Below are positions 48,429-60,200 of a stretch of 64,000 nt of DNA, in pieces. The notes below the pieces were generated by a model. It did no database searches. It had not been told where the DNA came from and saw nothing but the letters and a program-made list of their open reading frames with translations. The DNA is from Alphaproteobacteria bacterium (GTDB lineage Bacteria; Pseudomonadota; Alphaproteobacteria; Rs-D84). The first letter of the stretch is position 1, and every line of letters begins with the position of its first letter. The stretch spans positions 1,305 to 65,304 of the forward strand of contig JAGBHZ010000004.1 of the NCBI GenBank assembly GCA_017935245.1, in the 5' to 3' direction. The position numbers and the translations under genes are program-made.

Positions 48429-49391
48429 TTATTCTTCTTCGTTTTCTGATTTTTCGGCATCTTCGATATATTCGGCATCGGCCGCATCTTCGTGCAGCAA
48501 GAATTCAACAAATGCACGCATAACCTTTAACGGGCCGGCAACAGGGAACGTTACAATCTTGCCAATCGTTTTTATAATACCATCTTTGTCTTCGCCAATA
48601 TCCCCCAGTGCATTTTCACGTCCCAAGAAATGTTTCTGGTATGCGACGTCCATTTTACGGGTTTCCATCATAACAAACACATCATACGAATTAAATGGCG
48701 CATCAACAAATACCCCCTTGCCAAATGTCGCCCCCAGGCGCAAATATCCCTTTATCAATGGGGTCATTTCACGTTTTGCATCCACTTCATCCACAAATTC
48801 CGGCGGCAGAATATTCATGCGACTTAATTTCGGATTTACACCATCTGCAAACTTTTCCGGTAAAACTGTTGCCCGCAGGCGCAATGGTGTTAGATGGTTA
48901 TAGTACAAATATGATATCGCCTGGGCCGATTTGGCCGGTTTGGTTCCAACCCATGATGCAACACCGAACAGTACCCCAATCTTGCGACGGACAATATATT
49001 CACCCAATCCCGCCCATAACATACGCATAACCAGTGCATTTTCACAATATGCCATATCAACACATGCACGGGACATTTCTGCAATATTACCACGATATTT
49101 TTTTATCTTGGATATATTAAATTCATTTTCTGTATAAAAACCGCCCATTTTTTCGGCCGCATTTCGATCAATAATTCGATATGTGCCAACAACACGCCCC
49201 TGGTGAAAAACCGCCATGTATTCGGCAAATCGATCGTATGCATCATATTCTTCGCCCAGGGCACGCTGTTCTTCGGTTGTGCCGGCCCCCTCTTCTTCTA
49301 CAAAGACCTTGTAGCGCAATTGACGAACCTGTTTTCGTTCTTCTTTGTTTCGTGTCAGGCGTACTTCGAAATCACGCACCTTGATAGCCAT
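48429..49391 (-). CDS. olsB: Ornithine N-acyltransferase-like GNAT (OlsB family)
   Basis: LRYKVFVEE.GA, D.YD, VVGTYR, FY.E.EF, EMSRACV, LW.GL, LFG.AS, PLIKGYLRLGA. Confidence 0.8.
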   Translation of the reverse strand: MAIKVRDFEVRLTRNKEERKQVRQLRYKVFVEEEGAGTTEEQRALGEEYDAYDRFAEYMAVFHQGRVVGTYRIIDRNAAEKMGGFYTENEFNISKIKKYRGNIAEMSRACVDMAYCENALVMRMLWAGLGEYIVRRKIGVLFGVASWVGTKPAKSAQAISYLYYNHLTPLRLRATVLPEKFADGVNPKLSRMNILPPEFVDEVDAKREMTPLIKGYLRLGATFGKGVFVDAPFNSYDVFVMMETRKMDVAYQKHFLGRENALGDIGEDKDGIIKTIGKIVTFPVAGPLKVMRAFVEFLLHEDAADAEYIEDAEKSENEEE

Positions 49392-55190: not shown

Positions 55191-55213
55191 TAAAAATCCC
55201 CCAGACGGGGGAT

Positions 55214-55444
55214 TTATTTTTTTATTTTTCTATAATTTTTTGCCCACAACATATTGCACGCTTCGGCAAATATTTTATGTATTAATTCATTGCTGGGTAA
55301 TATTTTTCCATGCTCGATACGGGCCAGCGTCCTTCTGGGGATATTTAGTATTTTTGCCATATCCCCGCGCCCCATGCGCGCACTGCGCCGCCCCATACGT
55401 ATTGCATTACCATAAAATTTTGCATCAATTAAAACAATTGCCAT
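55214..55444 (-). CDS. Small XRE-family helix-turn-helix protein
   Basis: GNAIR..RR...M....MAKIL.I....LARIE.GK..P; AGGGG SD. Confidence 0.8.
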   Translation of the reverse strand: MAIVLIDAKFYGNAIRMGRRSARMGRGDMAKILNIPRRTLARIEHGKILPSNELIHKIFAEACNMLWAKNYRKIKK

Positions 55445-55493
55445 AATTATCCCCCTATCTTTTTGTTAAACAAAAAACCGCCACATCAAAAAG

Positions 55494-55562
55494 GCGGTTG
55501 GAGGTTAACAACTATTAACAGTAATAGCGTCGCTTATTGGATATTCACGACCCTCCAACCAT
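55494..55562 (-). ncRNA. C4/CI-like antisense RNA (element 1)
   Basis: Basal stem GGTTGGAGG/CCTCCAACC encloses two hairpins; exposed CTGTTAA and GTTGTTAA are complementary to upstream TTAACAG and TTAACAAC. Confidence 0.65.
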
Positions 55563-55625
55563 GGTTGGAGTTTTTTTCTGTTAAGAGGTTGTTAAGCCCC
55601 GCACTGGTTTCCCAATGCATATCGT

Positions 55626-55654
55626 ATTATATCGAATAAAAACATCAGATTCAA
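55626..55654 (-). promoter_or_regulatory. sigma70-like promoter of element 1 / XRE gene
   Basis: TTGAAT-17-TATAAT on the - strand. Confidence 0.75.
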
Positions 55655-55690
55655 CACTTTGATAAATAAATATTTATCGTACAAAATACG

Positions 55691-55737
55691 TTAGTTAAGT
55701 ATTTTGTCATCCCCGCGTTCGGCGACGGGATTTTTTT
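55691..55737. repeat. Remnant of the dispersed palindromic repeat family
   Basis: TGTCATCCCCGCG (55705-55717) is the reverse complement of 58882-58894; TTAGTTAAGTATTTT is shared with 3163-3177. Confidence 0.55.
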
Positions 55738-57325
55738 AAACAAATTTTTCGGGAACCAGACTGCAAATCGATTTCCATACACGACGGAATATTGATGTGT
55801 CCGGCGCATGCGTGTGAACCTGGGGTTTTTTATCGCCGGGGCGACTGCCGGTCCAGATGGGGTCGTCGTCTTCGTCCAGGGTTACACGCCACGATGTTTG
55901 AGTATCTTTTAAAATCATCGCACGCAGTTTTTCTGCAAAATCCGCACTTTCAAAAATTGCCACGTTTTCTGTGTTATAATATGCACTGCGTGGGTCCAGA
56001 TTAAAACTGCCAATCCATGAAATTTTATCGTCAAAAACCATCGTCTTGCTGTGCAGGACCGAAAAACTGGATTGTTTTCGTTCACGATCATGTTCTTTAC
56101 CGCGCAGATTTTCCGCAGACACCATAAATTCATAAACATCGGCGCCGGATTTAATCAACTGTTCCCGGTATTTTTCCCATTTCGCATACACCGTTGGCGC
56201 ATTTGTTGACGCCAATGAATTTGTAACAATGGTCATGTGCACACCAGATTTTTCTTCGTGCAACATGTGTTCCAAACCGCCCTGGCCCGGGACAAAATAC
56301 GCCGCCGACATGTACACAGATTCATCCGTTTTATTCCACAGATGTTGCAGAGCCCGAATAATATCACCACGATAGGCTTCTTTTTCAGCCATGGTCATTT
56401 CAACCTTTTGCGGTGGATCGGCCAAGAATTTTCCGCGACCCCAACTGAAATCAAATTGCTTGGTCTGGTATTCGCGCTGGGCCATTGCAATAATATTATT
56501 ATATTGCTTTATGCCGATGGCACTTTTTTCTGCGATTTTTTCAAATTCACGTTCCAGTTTCTTTAAACCGCGCTTTGTCTTGGCACGCGGAAACGCCGAT
56601 GCCGGTATCGACAGGTGATGATTCCAGTATTCATCAAAACTTTTTGTTGCATGCTTGGTCATTTCGCCGATAAACAAAACGTCTGTATCAGAAAAGTTTG
56701 ACGCGGTTTCTGGATAGAAATAATTACTGCCCACATTGCGGCCACCGGTAATATACGCAACATTATCAACAATAAATAATTTGTTATGCATGCGCGAATT
56801 CAGACGATTAAAATCCATCATAAATTGTGGGTAATATAACAACTTGCTGCGGGTTTTTACGGTGTTAAAAACCTTAACCTCTATATTAGGATGCTGGTTC
56901 AGCAACATCACATCAACAATATCAGATTTTGTTCCATAATCATCCAATAATATTCGCACCTTGACCCCGCGGTCGGCCGCGTTTTTCAGTTCACCAATCA
57001 ATACCTTGGACGAAAAATCGTTACTGTAAATATACGTCTGTAAATCAATCGTTTTGGTCGCCATGCGCGCAAATGCCGAACGAATAACAAACGCGGACAA
57101 CCCATCTTCGATTAATGTCGCGCCCGAAACATTGGTGTTGGTGGCCAATTCCGTGGCATAACATTGCGCAATTGGGGTTTCATATGGATTGTAATCAAAA
57201 TCACTTTGTGTGATTTTTGCCGTGTACGTTTCCAACCTTTTGTCGCGCGTTGTGGTTGGCACAGTTACACACCCAACCAATGGCAAACATAGCATCATCA
57301 TAGAAACTTTCTTAACAATCGTCAA
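55736..57325 (-). CDS. Phospholipase D family protein (ClsC/YmdC-like cardiolipin synthase)
   Basis: Two HKD motifs (MHNKLFIVD, LHSKTMVFD), GGRN, GSFNLDPRS; lipobox-like LVGC; start codon uncertain. Confidence 0.88.
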   Translation of the reverse strand: MTIVKKVSMMMLCLPLVGCVTVPTTTRDKRLETYTAKITQSDFDYNPYETPIAQCYATELATNTNVSGATLIEDGLSAFVIRSAFARMATKTIDLQTYIYSNDFSSKVLIGELKNAADRGVKVRILLDDYGTKSDIVDVMLLNQHPNIEVKVFNTVKTRSKLLYYPQFMMDFNRLNSRMHNKLFIVDNVAYITGGRNVGSNYFYPETASNFSDTDVLFIGEMTKHATKSFDEYWNHHLSIPASAFPRAKTKRGLKKLEREFEKIAEKSAIGIKQYNNIIAMAQREYQTKQFDFSWGRGKFLADPPQKVEMTMAEKEAYRGDIIRALQHLWNKTDESVYMSAAYFVPGQGGLEHMLHEEKSGVHMTIVTNSLASTNAPTVYAKWEKYREQLIKSGADVYEFMVSAENLRGKEHDRERKQSSFSVLHSKTMVFDDKISWIGSFNLDPRSAYYNTENVAIFESADFAEKLRAMILKDTQTSWRVTLDEDDDPIWTGSRPGDKKPQVHTHAPDTSIFRRVWKSICSLVPEKFV

Positions 57326-57436
57326 TTTTACTACCCCGTCTGGATTGACAGTATAATACAAAAACAAATTATATTACAAGCAAAATTCATTATATTTTTT
57401 AACGAATTGTGAATTTTGTCTTGTCTGTGATTTTAA

Positions 57437-57883
57437 CTAAGCGATTTTTAAATTTGGACGCGTCGCGCGCAGATTTTGCAGTGATTTTTCCTGGGCCGAA
57501 CGAAATGCATCTGGATTCCAGATTTGAAAACTGTTCCCGCGGCCAACAAACACCGCACGATCGGTAATACCCGCATGTTCCAGCATGTCGGCCGGAATAA
57601 CAATTCGCCCGGTTACATCAAATGCCAGGGGGCGCGCATCTGCAAATAACATTGCCGACAAATCATCCATTTCACGGTCAAATATTCCCATCTGGTCGGT
57701 GGCCGACGCCATTTGTTCCATGCGGGACATTGAAAAACCTTCGATGCAATTATTTGTAAAAGAACGAAATAAAACAACACCGGCAAATTTTTCATTTGCA
57801 ACCGAAGCACGGAAAGACGCCGGTACGGATATACGTCCCTTTGTATCCAAACGATTTTCATAAGATGAGAGAAACAATGACAT
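57437..57883 (-). CDS. mraZ: Division/cell wall cluster repressor MraZ
   Basis: LDTKGRISVPASFR, D.TGRIVIP, FVGRG..FQIW.P. Confidence 0.93.
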   Translation of the reverse strand: MSLFLSSYENRLDTKGRISVPASFRASVANEKFAGVVLFRSFTNNCIEGFSMSRMEQMASATDQMGIFDREMDDLSAMLFADARPLAFDVTGRIVIPADMLEHAGITDRAVFVGRGNSFQIWNPDAFRSAQEKSLQNLRATRPNLKIA

Positions 57884-57993
57884 TTCTGCGTCTTGTGCTT
57901 TTATGTTTTGGGGCGCGCCCCGGGTTAATCTTTCCGTCTTCGTACAACGAATTTAGCACAAGCATTTATGGTTGTCAATGACAATTCATAATT

Positions 57994-58013
57994 ATTTTAT
58001 GGTATTTTATGGT
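57994..58013. promoter_or_regulatory. Candidate MraZ operator (10 bp direct repeat)
   Basis: ATTTTATGGT x2 plus TTTATGGT at 57965-57972, around a TTGACA-17-TAAATT promoter of mraZ. Confidence 0.45.
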
Positions 58014-58280
58014 TTTTCAGTGTTTTTATAAAAAATTGAAAATAAAATTAAAATAAATATATTTTGTACTTGACCAACGATTCGTTTTTGTTCTAAGATG
58101 TTTGTATAGACAAAGGGAAAAGAAATAAAAAGCCCAGAAAACCGCACAAAAACCGGATTTCTGCCAAAAAGAACAAAACAGATTAAATCAAAAAATTAAA
58201 TTTTGTAAATACTTTCGTAAATACACGATTTAGTTCAAAATTTAATCACAACCGCATCCCAAGGAAGGAGGGGAACGCAC

Positions 58281-58616
58281 ATGACAAAAAACATCAAAGA
58301 AATTATGATTGCACTGAACCAGGTTTTAACAACAACGGTTTGGGTCAACGAAGATCGTCAGATTGTATCATTGGCGGATGAATTGAAAATTGGGAAAAAT
58401 AACGCCCCACGCTCTATCGAAGATTTGGCACGCGCATCGCTGGTTGGTGCATACGTGTCGTTACAAATTCGCACAGATAATTTTGATGTCGCGGCCGAAA
58501 GCATGGAAACCAAAGCATTGGCATTGCGTGTCAAAGAAATGGTTTTTGCCGAAGCAAAGAAAATTATGGATGCGTCCAACGTATCTGAAAACACACACGT
58601 TGCAATGGCGGCATAA
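58281..58616 (+). CDS. Hypothetical small protein
   Basis: Strong AAGGAGG SD; TTGACC-18-TAAGAT promoter about 180 nt upstream; terminator 58698-58733. Confidence 0.75.
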   Translation: MTKNIKEIMIALNQVLTTTVWVNEDRQIVSLADELKIGKNNAPRSIEDLARASLVGAYVSLQIRTDNFDVAAESMETKALALRVKEMVFAEAKKIMDASNVSENTHVAMAA

Positions 58617-58745
58617 TTATTACGCACGTGATGTGCGTATCTGGGCCAAAATTAAATGTGTGTCACCACAGTTTCCGGCTACCGGAAGGAAGGGAGCCAC
58701 CGTCGGTCAAGCAATTGCCGACGGTGATTTTTTATGGACATAAAA

Positions 58746-58945
58746 ATAAATAAAAGTTTAGTGGGGTAAGTCCTAGCAAAAATTTTGTCATTACCGCGCA
58801 GGCGGTAATAGGGCTTTTTAAACCACGCACACCGTGCGCCAAATAAATGTGTTTAGTTTTTATAGACCCTGTCCCCGCCGTCGCGGGGATGACAATTTTT
58901 TTGTCAGAAAATTGTAAAAAAATACCCCACCAAACTTTTATTTAT
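58746..58945. mobile_element. MITE-like element with 23 bp terminal inverted repeats and internal RPE/REP-like palindromes
   Basis: ATAAATAAAAGTTTAGTGGGGTA (58746-58768) vs TACCCCACCAAACTTTTATTTAT (58923-58945), 1 mismatch; internal TGTCATTACCGCGCAGGCGGTAAT and TCCCCGCCGTCGCGGGGATGACA; no ORF. Confidence 0.65.
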
Positions 58946-58953
58946 CTTAGCAT

Positions 58954-58982
58954 TTGCCTAATTTAAAATATTTGGTTATAAT
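58954..58982 (+). promoter_or_regulatory. sigma70-like promoter of element 2 / Cys-rich genes
   Basis: TTGCCT-17-TATAAT. Confidence 0.7.
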
Positions 58983-59106
58983 ATGTCTGTTATGGTGATT
59001 TTACCATAATGGGGTGTAGAAACCCGACTTGTGCATTAAAAGATGACGCAGTGCTAAATTGCCGACGCGTCATGCTTTGATGAAAAAAACTCCTGAGCAT
59101 ATTGGC

Positions 59107-59171
59107 GTCAGGAGGGCTGCGAATATATTGAATAAGCACACAATTCACAAGATTGTTTCTAACCTCCTGGC
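59107..59171 (+). ncRNA. C4/CI-like antisense RNA (element 2)
   Basis: Basal stem GTCAGGAGG/CCTCCTGGC; exposed CACAAG and GTTTCTA are complementary to upstream CTTGTG and TAGAAAC. Confidence 0.65.
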
Positions 59172-59236
59172 CACTCGAATTTATTCGGTGGTTTTTGTTT
59201 TTTCGCGAATAAAACAAAAGAAAGGGAGTGATACAA

Positions 59237-59680
59237 ATGAAAAAACTTTTAACCTTAACCGCGGTTGGCGCACTGCTGGCCGCACCCGCATCGGCGGTAC
59301 AAAAGTGTGTGGCATTGGACAGCAGCACGACAACATGTACAAATATAGAAGCGGAAGCTCCATACAGGGGGTGGAAATTAACATGCACCACCAATGGTAT
59401 CACGGTACCAATTGAGGGAACAAGCTCTTGTTCTAAGACCGCGGCGTTAACCCTTAACACCATAAAGGACGATTTAAAAATAAAATATAGTGAAAATGAT
59501 AGCAGTGAAGTATACTGCTGGTGCCAAATGATTCGTCCATTGGCATCATCTTGGGTGCTTGCACATCGTACCTTTGGTATGAATGTAAACTGCACAACTG
59601 GATGCGCAGAGAAGTGTGCAGAAACCTTTTCAGGAAACGCCGACTTTCGGTCTGCGATGATCTCGACCCTGTCTGACTAA
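59237..59680 (+). CDS. Cys-rich secreted protein
   Basis: Signal peptide MKKLLTLTAVGALLAAPASA; CWCQM..P..S.WV...C...CA..CA...FR C-terminal pattern. Confidence 0.75.
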   Translation: MKKLLTLTAVGALLAAPASAVQKCVALDSSTTTCTNIEAEAPYRGWKLTCTTNGITVPIEGTSSCSKTAALTLNTIKDDLKIKYSENDSSEVYCWCQMIRPLASSWVLAHRTFGMNVNCTTGCAEKCAETFSGNADFRSAMISTLSD

Positions 59681-59693
59681 TAAGGAAGCACGA

Positions 59694-60200
59694 ATGAAAC
59701 GAATAATAATTTTATTAGCCTGCGTGCCAATAAGTGCAACAGCGGCTGATTTGGTTGCCGATGGTGAACTGTGCCTAAGTAGTCCGCAATGCGCATCAGG
59801 TGTGTGTCTGCGTAAAGACGCTACGTCACTGGCACGATGCGCGCCAAAGGCACAGCAGGGCGAAGCCTGTTCTTTTGTCGATACGTTGACTGGCGTATAT
59901 TACAATCCACCTTGTGAAACAGGACTAGCTTGTAAGGCAGACGCATCTGCAACAACAGGTAATTTTGGTGTCTGTGGAAAAATCGAACTTTTAGAGGAGT
60001 GTCCCACAGGGCATATATCGATTGATGCGCCGTACATAACCATCGCGACATCGTGCCCCAGTGGCACAACCGCCATTGGCACGGCGGAGTCGTGTTTGGC
60101 AACACTAAATGGTAATTGCATAATGTATGCCCCGGCGGGCGTGTCATTTACCGACGATGCCGGCACGTACGAATTTACCGCATCATGTGCATTAGAATAA
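59694..60200 (+). CDS. Cys-rich secreted protein
   Basis: Signal peptide; dense Cys array (GELC...QCASGVC...C...GEAC...C..GLAC); C-terminal FTDDAGTYEFTASC. Confidence 0.75.
   Translation: MKRIIILLACVPISATAADLVADGELCLSSPQCASGVCLRKDATSLARCAPKAQQGEACSFVDTLTGVYYNPPCETGLACKADASATTGNFGVCGKIELLEECPTGHISIDAPYITIATSCPSGTTAIGTAESCLATLNGNCIMYAPAGVSFTDDAGTYEFTASCALE

Follow-up and report, generated by a model that had tools for sequence, protein, structure and literature searches.

The 64,000-nt stretch of DNA analysed here (the window) belongs to the assembly of an alphaproteobacterium of the order Rs-D84 (902 kb in 18 contigs, 92.5% complete; G000 denotes the whole genome). It contains two leaders with the same order of parts: element 1 on the minus strand, upstream of an open reading frame (ORF) for a helix-turn-helix (HTH)-like protein, and element 2 on the plus strand, upstream of two ORFs for Cys-rich proteins. 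Each leader consists of a promoter, a 5' hairpin (H1), GGGG, a site a1 in a small hairpin, a site b1, a run of A residues, a CTCC-type segment (region 1), an RNA core resembling the C4 RNA of phage P1, an intrinsic terminator and a Shine–Dalgarno sequence (SD) ahead of the gene (Table 1). The core carries sites b' and a', complementary to b1 and a1, between the two strands of a basal stem, the 5' strand of which is region 2. Both leaders had been described in an initial annotation of the window. Every letter quoted there was found in its place, and the folding of each leader surpassed 200 of 200 shuffled sequences (z of −4.49 for element 1 and −4.47 for element 2, about −4.5 in both cases).

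An nhmmer profile of the core sequence, run on the whole genome after simple pattern searches, gave 21 matches at E ≤ 3.7e-11, with the next at E 0.3. One locus accounts for two of these, being present at the end of both contig C6 and contig C11, which leaves 20 loci, and a covariance model of the core (R1; 116 positions, 15 pairs) recovered the same 21 places. The −10 box is near-invariant over the 20 copies, the core alignment shows conserved terminator columns, and the parts follow one another in fixed order between promoter and terminator, on the coding strand, at all 20 loci. There are at least twenty elements per genome, not two. The initial annotation was right on architecture and orthogonality, and both of its elements are real, but it understated an observation that is confirmed here, since the two belong to a family spread through an order. 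A divergent twenty-first copy, 5' of C1:6903-7424 (−), was missed by both nhmmer and R1 and was read by eye; it has a longer core, a basal stem GTCGGGATG/CATCCCGAC, an a pair TTAGAAAA/TTTTCTAA and a b pair CATACAT/ATGTATG.

Scanned over other genomes, R1 matched 30 of 41 relatives; 23 of the 24 other genomes of the genus were matched, with 2–44 matches each. Within the order, 133 of 151 genomes gave a match (105 of 107 in the genus; 16 of 22 genera), for a total of at least 1,386 matches, a lower bound given that at most 24 candidates per genome were scored. R1 also matched 9 of 149 genomes from other alphaproteobacterial families, and at four such distant loci a1:a' and b1:b' complementarity was seen by eye around a GGAAGG/CUUCC stem. 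The relatives of the cargo protein are metagenome-assembled genomes titled Candidatus Enterousia sp. or Alphaproteobacteria bacterium. The Candidatus Enterousia group comprises gut bacteria of the order Rs-D84 with genomes below 1 Mb and a life that is probably partner-dependent (PMC12306168); the accessible parts of that paper make no mention of 'small RNA' or 'cysteine'.

The recognition sites were then compared between loci. Matching of a and b was scored as run lengths over narrow windows, because wide-window duplex energies were noisy from cross-pairing of the conserved stems. At all 20 loci, a1 has its complement in the a' preceding CCUCC, over a run of at least 7 nt, and b1 in the loop b', over at least 5 nt (at least 6 nt in 19 of 20). 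Ranked by summed run length, the cognate leader came top for 20 of 20 RNAs, with ties in 2. The loci use 13 distinct a' and 19 distinct b' sequences, and every (a,b) combination is unique among the 20 loci. On an alignment of 20 sequences (A2), the a1:a' helix, extended by GGGG:CCUC, is 94.1% paired and has 31 double-change cells, a value reached by 0 of 500 shuffles; slid control partners were only 32–59% paired. The proposal that the recognition letters differ and covary between loci, originally based on two leaders, is borne out at the 20 loci. The a/b helices include G-U pairs, for example CTCGTAG/CTATGAG, which fits an RNA-level pairing on the coding strand.

Paralogous leaders are on average 0.82 identical outside the a/b sites and 0.53 inside them, with the lower value inside in 53 of 55 pairs. 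For the nearest pair the values are 0.95 and 0.44, and all changes are compensated. When the best locus was taken from each of 19 other genomes, new complementary letters (a ≥ 7, b ≥ 6) were found automatically in 14. Of the remaining five loci, two were not parsed by the pattern and three were given a wrong a1 candidate by the script; by eye, L034 fits, L038 shows an a1 site and L035 is without a clear reading.

RNAalifold applied to a MAFFT alignment of the core returned a 5-bp GGAGG/CCUCC stem alone, with the loops misaligned, and the helices were therefore set by hand. In the small RNA (sRNA), a basal stem GGAGG/CCUCC surrounds an AU-rich hairpin that is conserved, the hairpin with b' in its loop and the single-stranded a'. 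The whole sRNA fold is 93.5% paired over the alignment, with 43 double-change cells, and 0 of 500 shuffles reach it. The basal stem is 100% paired over the 20 copies with 4 covarying pairs, in agreement with the earlier statement that the stems differ while staying paired. The stem of the b' hairpin also covaries (8 double changes at 254:267; AU in 12 and UA in 7 at one pair), and H1 is 85% paired, with double changes in 6 of its 7 pairs. Region 1 repeats, further upstream, the 3' strand of the basal stem and pairs with region 2, the 5' strand of that stem, in runs of 5–10 nt at 20 of 20 loci. The letters of region 1 track the class of the basal stem (TGA/TCA, AAC/GTT, TGC/GCA), and one locus carries a triple change (stem GGATGG, region 1 ATCC, region 3 CGTCC). 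By these pairing counts, two mutually exclusive folds are conserved, one with region 1 on the 5' strand of the basal stem and one with the basal stem closed. Because both pairings are kept, the leader can be read as a chain of GGGG, CUCC, GGAGG, CCUCC and SD segments that pair exclusively.

Table 1. Features of the two leaders and their genes in the window (H1, 5' hairpin; SD, Shine–Dalgarno sequence; MFE, minimum free energy; R1, covariance model of the core).
Feature	Position	Strand	Basis
Element 1 promoter, TTGAAT-17-TATAAT	55654..55626	−	Consensus scan, 10/12 matches
Element 1 5' hairpin H1, GCATTGG GAAA CCAGTGC	55618-55601	−	MFE fold
Element 1 GGGG	55600-55597	−	Sequence; begins target region 55578..55600
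Element 1 a1, TTAACAAC, within small hairpin	55595-55588	−	Cognate a run of 8 nt
Element 1 b1, TTAACAG	55584-55578	−	Cognate b run of 7 nt
Element 1 A7 run	55577-55571	−	Sequence
Element 1 region 1, CTCCAACC, copy of basal stem 3' strand	55570-55563	−	8-nt run with region 2; paired in MFE fold
Element 1 C4-like RNA core, 65 nt	55560-55496	−	nhmmer E 1.2e-21; R1 93.8 bits
Element 1 core basal stem, GGTTGGAGG/CCTCCAACC, hairpin with AAUAU..AAUAAG loop		−	Helix counts
Element 1 b', CTGTTAA, in hairpin	55521-55515	−	Sequence
Element 1 a', GTTGTTAA, single-stranded	55512-55505	−	Sequence
Element 1 intrinsic terminator, CCGCC..GGCGG then T6, abutting basal stem	55472..55497	−	Sequence and MFE hairpin
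Element 1 SD	55455-55450	−	Sequence
Element 1 ORF, 76 aa, HTH-like, ATG 55444	55444-55214	−	ORF list
Element 2 promoter, TTGCCT-17-TATAAT	58954..58982	+	Consensus scan, 10/12 matches
Element 2 5' hairpin H1, GTTATGGTG ATTT TACCATAAT	58989-59010	+	MFE fold, helix counts
Element 2 GGGG	59011-59014	+	Sequence; begins target region 59011..59033
Element 2 a1, TAGAAAC, in GGG..CCC hairpin	59017-59023	+	Cognate a run of 7 nt
Element 2 b1, CTTGTG	59028-59033	+	Cognate b run of 6 nt
Element 2 variable spacer with its own hairpin	59034..59082	+	MFE fold
Element 2 A7 run	59083-59089	+	Sequence
Element 2 region 1, CTCCTGA	59090-59096	+	7-nt run with region 2; paired in MFE fold
Element 2 C4-like RNA core, 65 nt	59107-59171	+	nhmmer E 4.6e-29; R1 107.8 bits
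Element 2 core basal stem, GTCAGGAGG/CCTCCTGGC		+	Helix counts
Element 2 b', CACAAG, in hairpin loop	59146-59151	+	Sequence
Element 2 a', GTTTCTA, single-stranded	59155-59161	+	Sequence
Element 2 intrinsic terminator, CCACTCGAA..TTCGGTGG then T5 G T6	59171-59203	+	Sequence and MFE hairpin
Element 2 SD	59224-59228	+	Sequence
Element 2 ORF1, 147 aa, 9 Cys, signal-like N-terminus, ATG 59237	59237-59680	+	ORF list
Element 2 ORF2, 168 aa, 14 Cys, colipase-like N-terminal part	59694-60200	+	ORF list, Pfam

Just 5' of element 2 lies a 26-nt inverted repeat (58743-58768 and 58923-58948; 92% complementary), which encloses 154 nt with two terminator-like hairpins. Its right arm is a box, AAACTTTTATTTATCT, that also occurs 5' of the −35 hexamer in many other copies.

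C4/CI-type RNAs are textbook phage immunity factors, and the mature RNA, of about 77 nt, is formed by RNase P cleavage at the 5' end followed by trimming. The annotated record of phage P1 gives the order a1, b1, c4 (77 nt), a2, b2, icd, with a2 at 48423-29, b2 at 48452-59 and icd at 48470. Up to the RNA itself, our elements repeat this order (promoter, 5' hairpin, G/C hairpin with a1 in its loop, b1, spacer, RNA), so that the resemblance to P1 C4 with a1b1 claimed in the initial annotation agrees with both the P1 record and the Rfam alignments. The topology of RF01695 is present, with a basal stem around two hairpins, b' in the loop of the second and a single-stranded a' before the 3' strand. 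That of RF03163 is present in 20 copies, where the 5' hairpin leads directly into a short G/C hairpin that holds a1 in its loop, with b1 next. As in P1 and P7 C4, specificity would be set by two short address sites, and it is in these sites that P1 and P7 differ (PMC12197685; PMC5320573).

Comparison with P1 also shows clear differences. The basal stem is 9 bp here and about 17 in the C4 model; an intrinsic terminator stands where P1 has a2; the cargo consists of secreted Cys-rich proteins instead of icd/ant; and at least 20 copies occur in a genome in which neither capsid nor terminase was found. The downstream antirepressor, kil or replication genes that form the usual context of C4/CI RNAs were not found at the 20 loci. 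On P1, used as positive control, the Rfam models scored 68.8 bits (C4), 51 (c4-a1b1) and 35.1 (isrK). The scan with the C4, c4-2 and c4-a1b1 models that had been expected to recognize the elements returned no match at E ≤ 10 in the region. RF01695 (gathering score 45 bits) gave no match in the window at its gathering score, none at E ≤ 10 in 55200-59400 or at the 18 other loci, and 0 at E ≤ 1 in the whole genome. The best match to RF03163 (gathering 46.7 bits) in the genome search was below threshold, at 16.6 bits and E 0.049; two of its four weak matches fall exactly on a1b1 regions (contig C4, 54930-54973 and 19354-19407). Conversely, R1 failed to detect c4 in the immunity region of P1. By their layout, the elements are built like C4 with a1/b1 sites, yet stand outside the Rfam families.

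Two further phage RNAs bear on how such a leader might work. The CI RNA of satellite phage P4, set beside our elements by description only, arises by processing of the leader of the very operon under its control, pairs with two sites (seqA on its upstream side, seqC on its downstream side), and autoregulates by premature termination (PMC4825925). Our elements, as known from their sequence, would likewise produce a leader-derived RNA with a complementary site upstream of itself in the transcript, but a downstream seqC-like site was not found. IsrK of Salmonella Gifsy-1 has been called a structural homologue of P4 seqA; when short and terminated, this RNA targets in trans the read-through transcript of its own locus, toggling that transcript between silent and active conformations (PMC4825925). 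The isrK model RF01394 covers the a1b1 region of P1 and gives two weak matches, both far below its gathering score of 50 bits, on the a1b1 of element 1 (55557-55618, 15.9 bits, E 4.1) and, at 15.7 bits, on that of the C13:28210 copy. The effect of IsrK is positive, as it activates translation in a phage antiterminator pathway.

The spacer between b1 and the A run ranges from about 0 to 130 nt across copies. Five copies (L001, L002, L009, L010 and L011; e.g., L002:148-166) contain an extra terminator-like hairpin between b1 and the core, GGCGCGCC..GGCGTGT followed by a T-run, which lies directly 3' of b1. In these copies, the hairpin would yield an IsrK-like short a1b1 transcript.

Large families of C4-like RNAs are known from one other bacterium. 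A 2010 survey of RNA motifs lists the c4 antisense RNA and c4-a1b1 for Proteobacteria and phages (PMC2864571), and 'Group 1' of Acinetobacter baumannii AB5075 is a large chromosomal family of C4-like sRNAs with a variable address loop, which seem to arise by processing of longer transcripts (Weiss et al. 2016, PMC5320573). The 20 loci described here similarly combine many chromosomal copies per genome with variable address loops. Unlike ours, the Acinetobacter RNAs are recognized by the Rfam C4 motif and are described as stand-alone sRNAs, for which the accessible parts of the paper report neither cognate upstream a1/b1 sites nor self-address (PMC5320573). They also belong to Gammaproteobacteria, whereas ours are leaders of secreted-protein operons in genome-reduced Alphaproteobacteria. 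Among the papers on C4 antisense RNA that were listed, no report on Alphaproteobacteria or on self-addressed leaders was found at the level of titles and abstracts.

Targets of the 20 RNAs were sought in the whole genome by strict Watson–Crick matching with both half-sites within 60 nt, imperfect second sites being outside the scope of this search. For most RNAs, nothing matched apart from the cognate a1b1 and, trivially, the antisense strand of the RNA gene; this holds for element 2, whose own a1b1 is the sole bipartite match besides that antisense. Extra matches were widely spaced matches of the shortest motifs, and a search permitting G-U pairs gave tens to hundreds of chance matches per RNA. 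No downstream a2/b2, including sites over the ribosome-binding site as in P1 and P7, was found by the strict search, and by eye, the stretch from terminator to start codon is almost identical among copies with differing a'/b'. The proposed silencing of the downstream genes by bipartite a/b pairing in the manner of P1 or P4 did not hold up, since self-silencing through a/b pairing cannot run that way without a downstream a2/b2. Judged by strict Watson–Crick matching, each RNA is, for most of the set, addressed to its own leader.

The cores might instead be trans-acting sRNAs for other RNAs of the host, a phage or a neighbour cell, or for imperfect sites, with a1/b1 serving as a precursor lock or decoy. 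The working target in P1 is indeed a2/b2 and not a1/b1, bacterial or phage targets have been proposed for the Acinetobacter C4-like sRNAs (PMC5320573), and one copy, C17:79536, has a core and a1b1 without a convincing cargo ORF. As the strict search gives no second Watson–Crick site for most RNAs, we regard this explanation as improbable.

We favour, as the probable explanation, a lineage-specific and greatly expanded family of leader RNAs in which the core acts in trans as a self-addressed switch, with a1/b1 forming a region of the type seen in Rfam c4-a1b1, Salmonella IsrK and P4 seqA. The terminator, perhaps together with RNase P, would release the core, which would accumulate and, displaying a' and b' as C4 does, would bind nascent transcripts of its own locus alone, at the a1 loop and b1. 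With a1/b1 occupied, the nascent a'/b' and CCUCC could no longer fold back onto a1/b1 and GGGG of the same molecule, and the CCUCC strand, which is an anti-SD, would become available to the SD of the cargo gene. The outcome would be locus-specific autoregulation, most likely negative and less probably, as in IsrK, positive. IsrK, a leader RNA with an effect in trans on the read-through transcript of its own locus, provides a precedent for action of the core in trans. RNase P takes part in C4 maturation (PMC5320573), and the genome encodes RNase P RNA at C14:16207-16541 (170 bits). Hfq (PF17209) was not found in this genome, 92.5% complete, with its at least 20 structured antisense-type RNAs.

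Coupling to the SD was modelled by partition-function folding of 18 full leaders, in which 30 nt of a1b1 were barred from pairing to mimic occupation by a second RNA. In this equilibrium model, which ignores termination, the block cut the mean unpaired probability of the SD from 0.41 to 0.19, with a decrease of more than 0.05 in 14 of 18 loci and an increase in 1. The predicted number of CCUCC:SD pairs rose from 1.0 to 2.65. Control blocks reduced the modelled SD accessibility in 0 of 18 loci when placed on H1 and in 0 of 10 when placed on the spacer.

Several results weigh against a self-addressed switch acting in trans. CCUCC and SD are invariant by nature, so that covariation is silent on their pairing, and a good terminator stands between the RNA and the cargo gene, while no antiterminator was found by eye in the leaders. 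The Rfam C4 models miss the elements and R1 misses P1 c4, which leaves common descent with C4 unsupported. Among 20 sequencing runs with part of the stretch, 2 are recorded as RNA. These gave short assembled contigs over the conserved core and terminator that run into other b'/a' letters, and hence derive from paralogues or relatives. When the folded core and the folded 5' region were combined in RNAcofold, most cognate pairs came out at about 0 kcal/mol (means of −1.3 for cognate and −0.13 for non-cognate pairs, in a nested model blind to loop–loop contacts). In addition, left unconstrained, both window elements adopt minimum free energy (MFE) folds in which a1:a' and b1:b' form in cis as a nested structure enclosing the region 1:2 hairpin, so that a purely cis structure would explain the covariation. 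Finally, the loop of the region 1:2 hairpin, presumably unconstrained, shows 1.31 bits of variation against 1.44 for b1 and 1.1 for b'. It varies as much as b, and diversifying selection on the a/b letters is therefore suggested at most.

The cis folds, the lack of gain for most trans pairs in the nested model, the variable loop and the absence of a second site from the strict search would all fit a purely cis-structured leader, in which one nested fold sets stability, termination or SD exposure and the letters drift with compensation after duplication. Against this, the b' hairpin and the closed basal stem covary yet are absent from the nested cis fold, which implies that a second conformation is kept by selection. 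With a1 in a hairpin loop and a' single-stranded, the elements are arranged like C4 and other kissing antisense RNAs, and a terminator directly after the stem would release a separate RNA. Divergence confined so strongly to the a/b sites of the nearest paralogues, with every change compensated, would be hard to reach by drift alone. We consider a cis-only leader rather unlikely, and retain the trans-acting, self-addressed switch as the preferred explanation.

Tabulation of the genes behind the 20 loci, as the initial annotation had suggested, showed secreted Cys-rich proteins at 15, small HTH-like proteins at 3, an unclassified 75-aa ORF at 1 and no convincing ORF at 1. The secreted Cys-rich ORFs have a signal-like N-terminus (judged by eye) and 5–15 Cys, often in an operon of a ~150-aa and a ~90-aa protein. 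The gene behind element 1 had been called XRE; it is HTH-like, but its match to Pfam HTH_3 (E 1.1e-4, 22.6 bits) is just under the 23-bit cut-off. A paralogue of it sits behind the C13:28210 copy. Nine paralogues of element 2 ORF1 have 7 invariant Cys in common and 26–43% identity to it. No Pfam family and no usable Atlas match was obtained for this family (cargo family A). A structure model of ORF1 had a pLDDT of 74.4 and a pTM of 0.69, and Foldseek of the model against the PDB gave no match (best E 0.15). ORF2 is above the Pfam cut-offs for Colipase (38.6 bits vs 27) and Colipase_C (33.8 vs 23.7). The Pfam Colipase family is eukaryotic, and a paralogue of ORF2 with the same N-terminal module lies behind another copy (C17:14621-15130).

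The genome has 22 cargo-like regions, 15 with a C4-like leader and 7 without. Three of the leaderless regions are 198-nt fragments, and two share another conserved upstream region. The two leaderless operons C17:15927-16250 (−) and C11:37800-38111 (+) encode the same protein families and have in common an upstream region of ~200 nt (..GTGTCGAAAAAAAAGGACCGTTTTCC..), pieces of which are also present at other places in the genome. The cargo DNA 59237-60200 had no full-length match in 110 further genomes of the genus, only signal-peptide and C-terminal domain pieces.

The cargo proteins (alignment A4, 59237-59677 with eight paralogues) are much more diverged than the leaders, which are 0.82–0.95 identical outside a/b. 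This suggests homogenization of the leader or shuffling of the cargo, and it would be consistent with a role at the DNA level, the leader being a recombination or gene-conversion cassette or a mobile promoter and the a/b repeats sites for a protein or recombinase. Four of the five tyrosine recombinase genes of the genome also lie within about 2.5 kb of a copy. Two of these recombinases are XerC/XerD-like with housekeeping neighbours, however, and the G-U pairs in a/b would be A-C mismatches on the other strand. The fixed order of parts from promoter to terminator on the coding strand, together with five further helices that covary as RNA, likewise makes a DNA-level role extremely improbable.

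The genomic setting was examined for phage genes. The two elements of the window lie between housekeeping genes, with an M13 peptidase gene, a PLD-family gene, mraZ and plsX as neighbours, and HK97-type capsid and TerL were not found in the genome (92.5% complete). Among its five tyrosine recombinases, two are XerD/XerC-like with housekeeping neighbours and three are phage-type. A general link of the copies to tyrosine recombinases was rejected, as it consists in part of XerC/XerD beside housekeeping genes. The non-phage setting proposed for the elements thus holds in the window, but two copies elsewhere adjoin phage-type integrases. C2:99976, the most divergent copy, lies at the edge of an islet (L070, C2:96000-104500). 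Upstream of it are a 5' tRNA fragment, an HTH_17 excisionase-like ORF, a phage-type integrase with an Arm-binding domain, a 178-aa ORF and an AAA_14/DUF4143 ATPase; downstream are accB, accC and mreB. Its position beside an integrase and an excisionase-like gene is a likeness to P4. A second phage-type integrase and a DUF3631 gene lie ~1.5 kb beyond the C17:38454 operon, with an HU-family gene upstream (L071, C17:35500-43500). Domestication of a C4-type module, as put forward in the initial annotation, fits most loci, and the integrase-linked copies hint at the origin of the module; such domestication is not new in itself, since multicopy C4-like sRNAs of this kind had already been published for A. 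baumannii (PMC5320573).

A multicopy chromosomal C4-like family has so far been known only from Acinetobacter; here, a candidate target can be read in the sequence, as a bipartite address in each RNA that fits its own leader alone, a pattern that would extend over hundreds of genomes. The elements are found by no current Rfam model and thus mark a gap in that database. They open the questions of what purpose the enigmatic upstream a1/b1 sites of C4-like RNAs serve, how many non-cross-reacting address pairs one scaffold can carry, and how a fast-evolving set of secreted Cys-rich proteins is controlled in uncultured Rs-D84 / Candidatus Enterousia. They are also candidate ready-made parts for orthogonal riboregulators. 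A bolder and doubtful extension is that locus-addressed RNA switching generates variation of surface or secreted proteins, with 20–40 operons set independently in possibly bistable, heritable ON/OFF states. Each operon would produce a C4-like RNA of its own that recognizes the 5' end of transcripts of that locus alone, and the alternative pairings at the anti-SD strand would contribute to the switch. If true, the family would be a natural library of more than 1,000 orthogonal RNA–RNA address pairs, and a genome-reduced gut symbiont or parasite without Hfq would vary its Cys-rich repertoire, some of it colipase-like, without DNA rearrangement.

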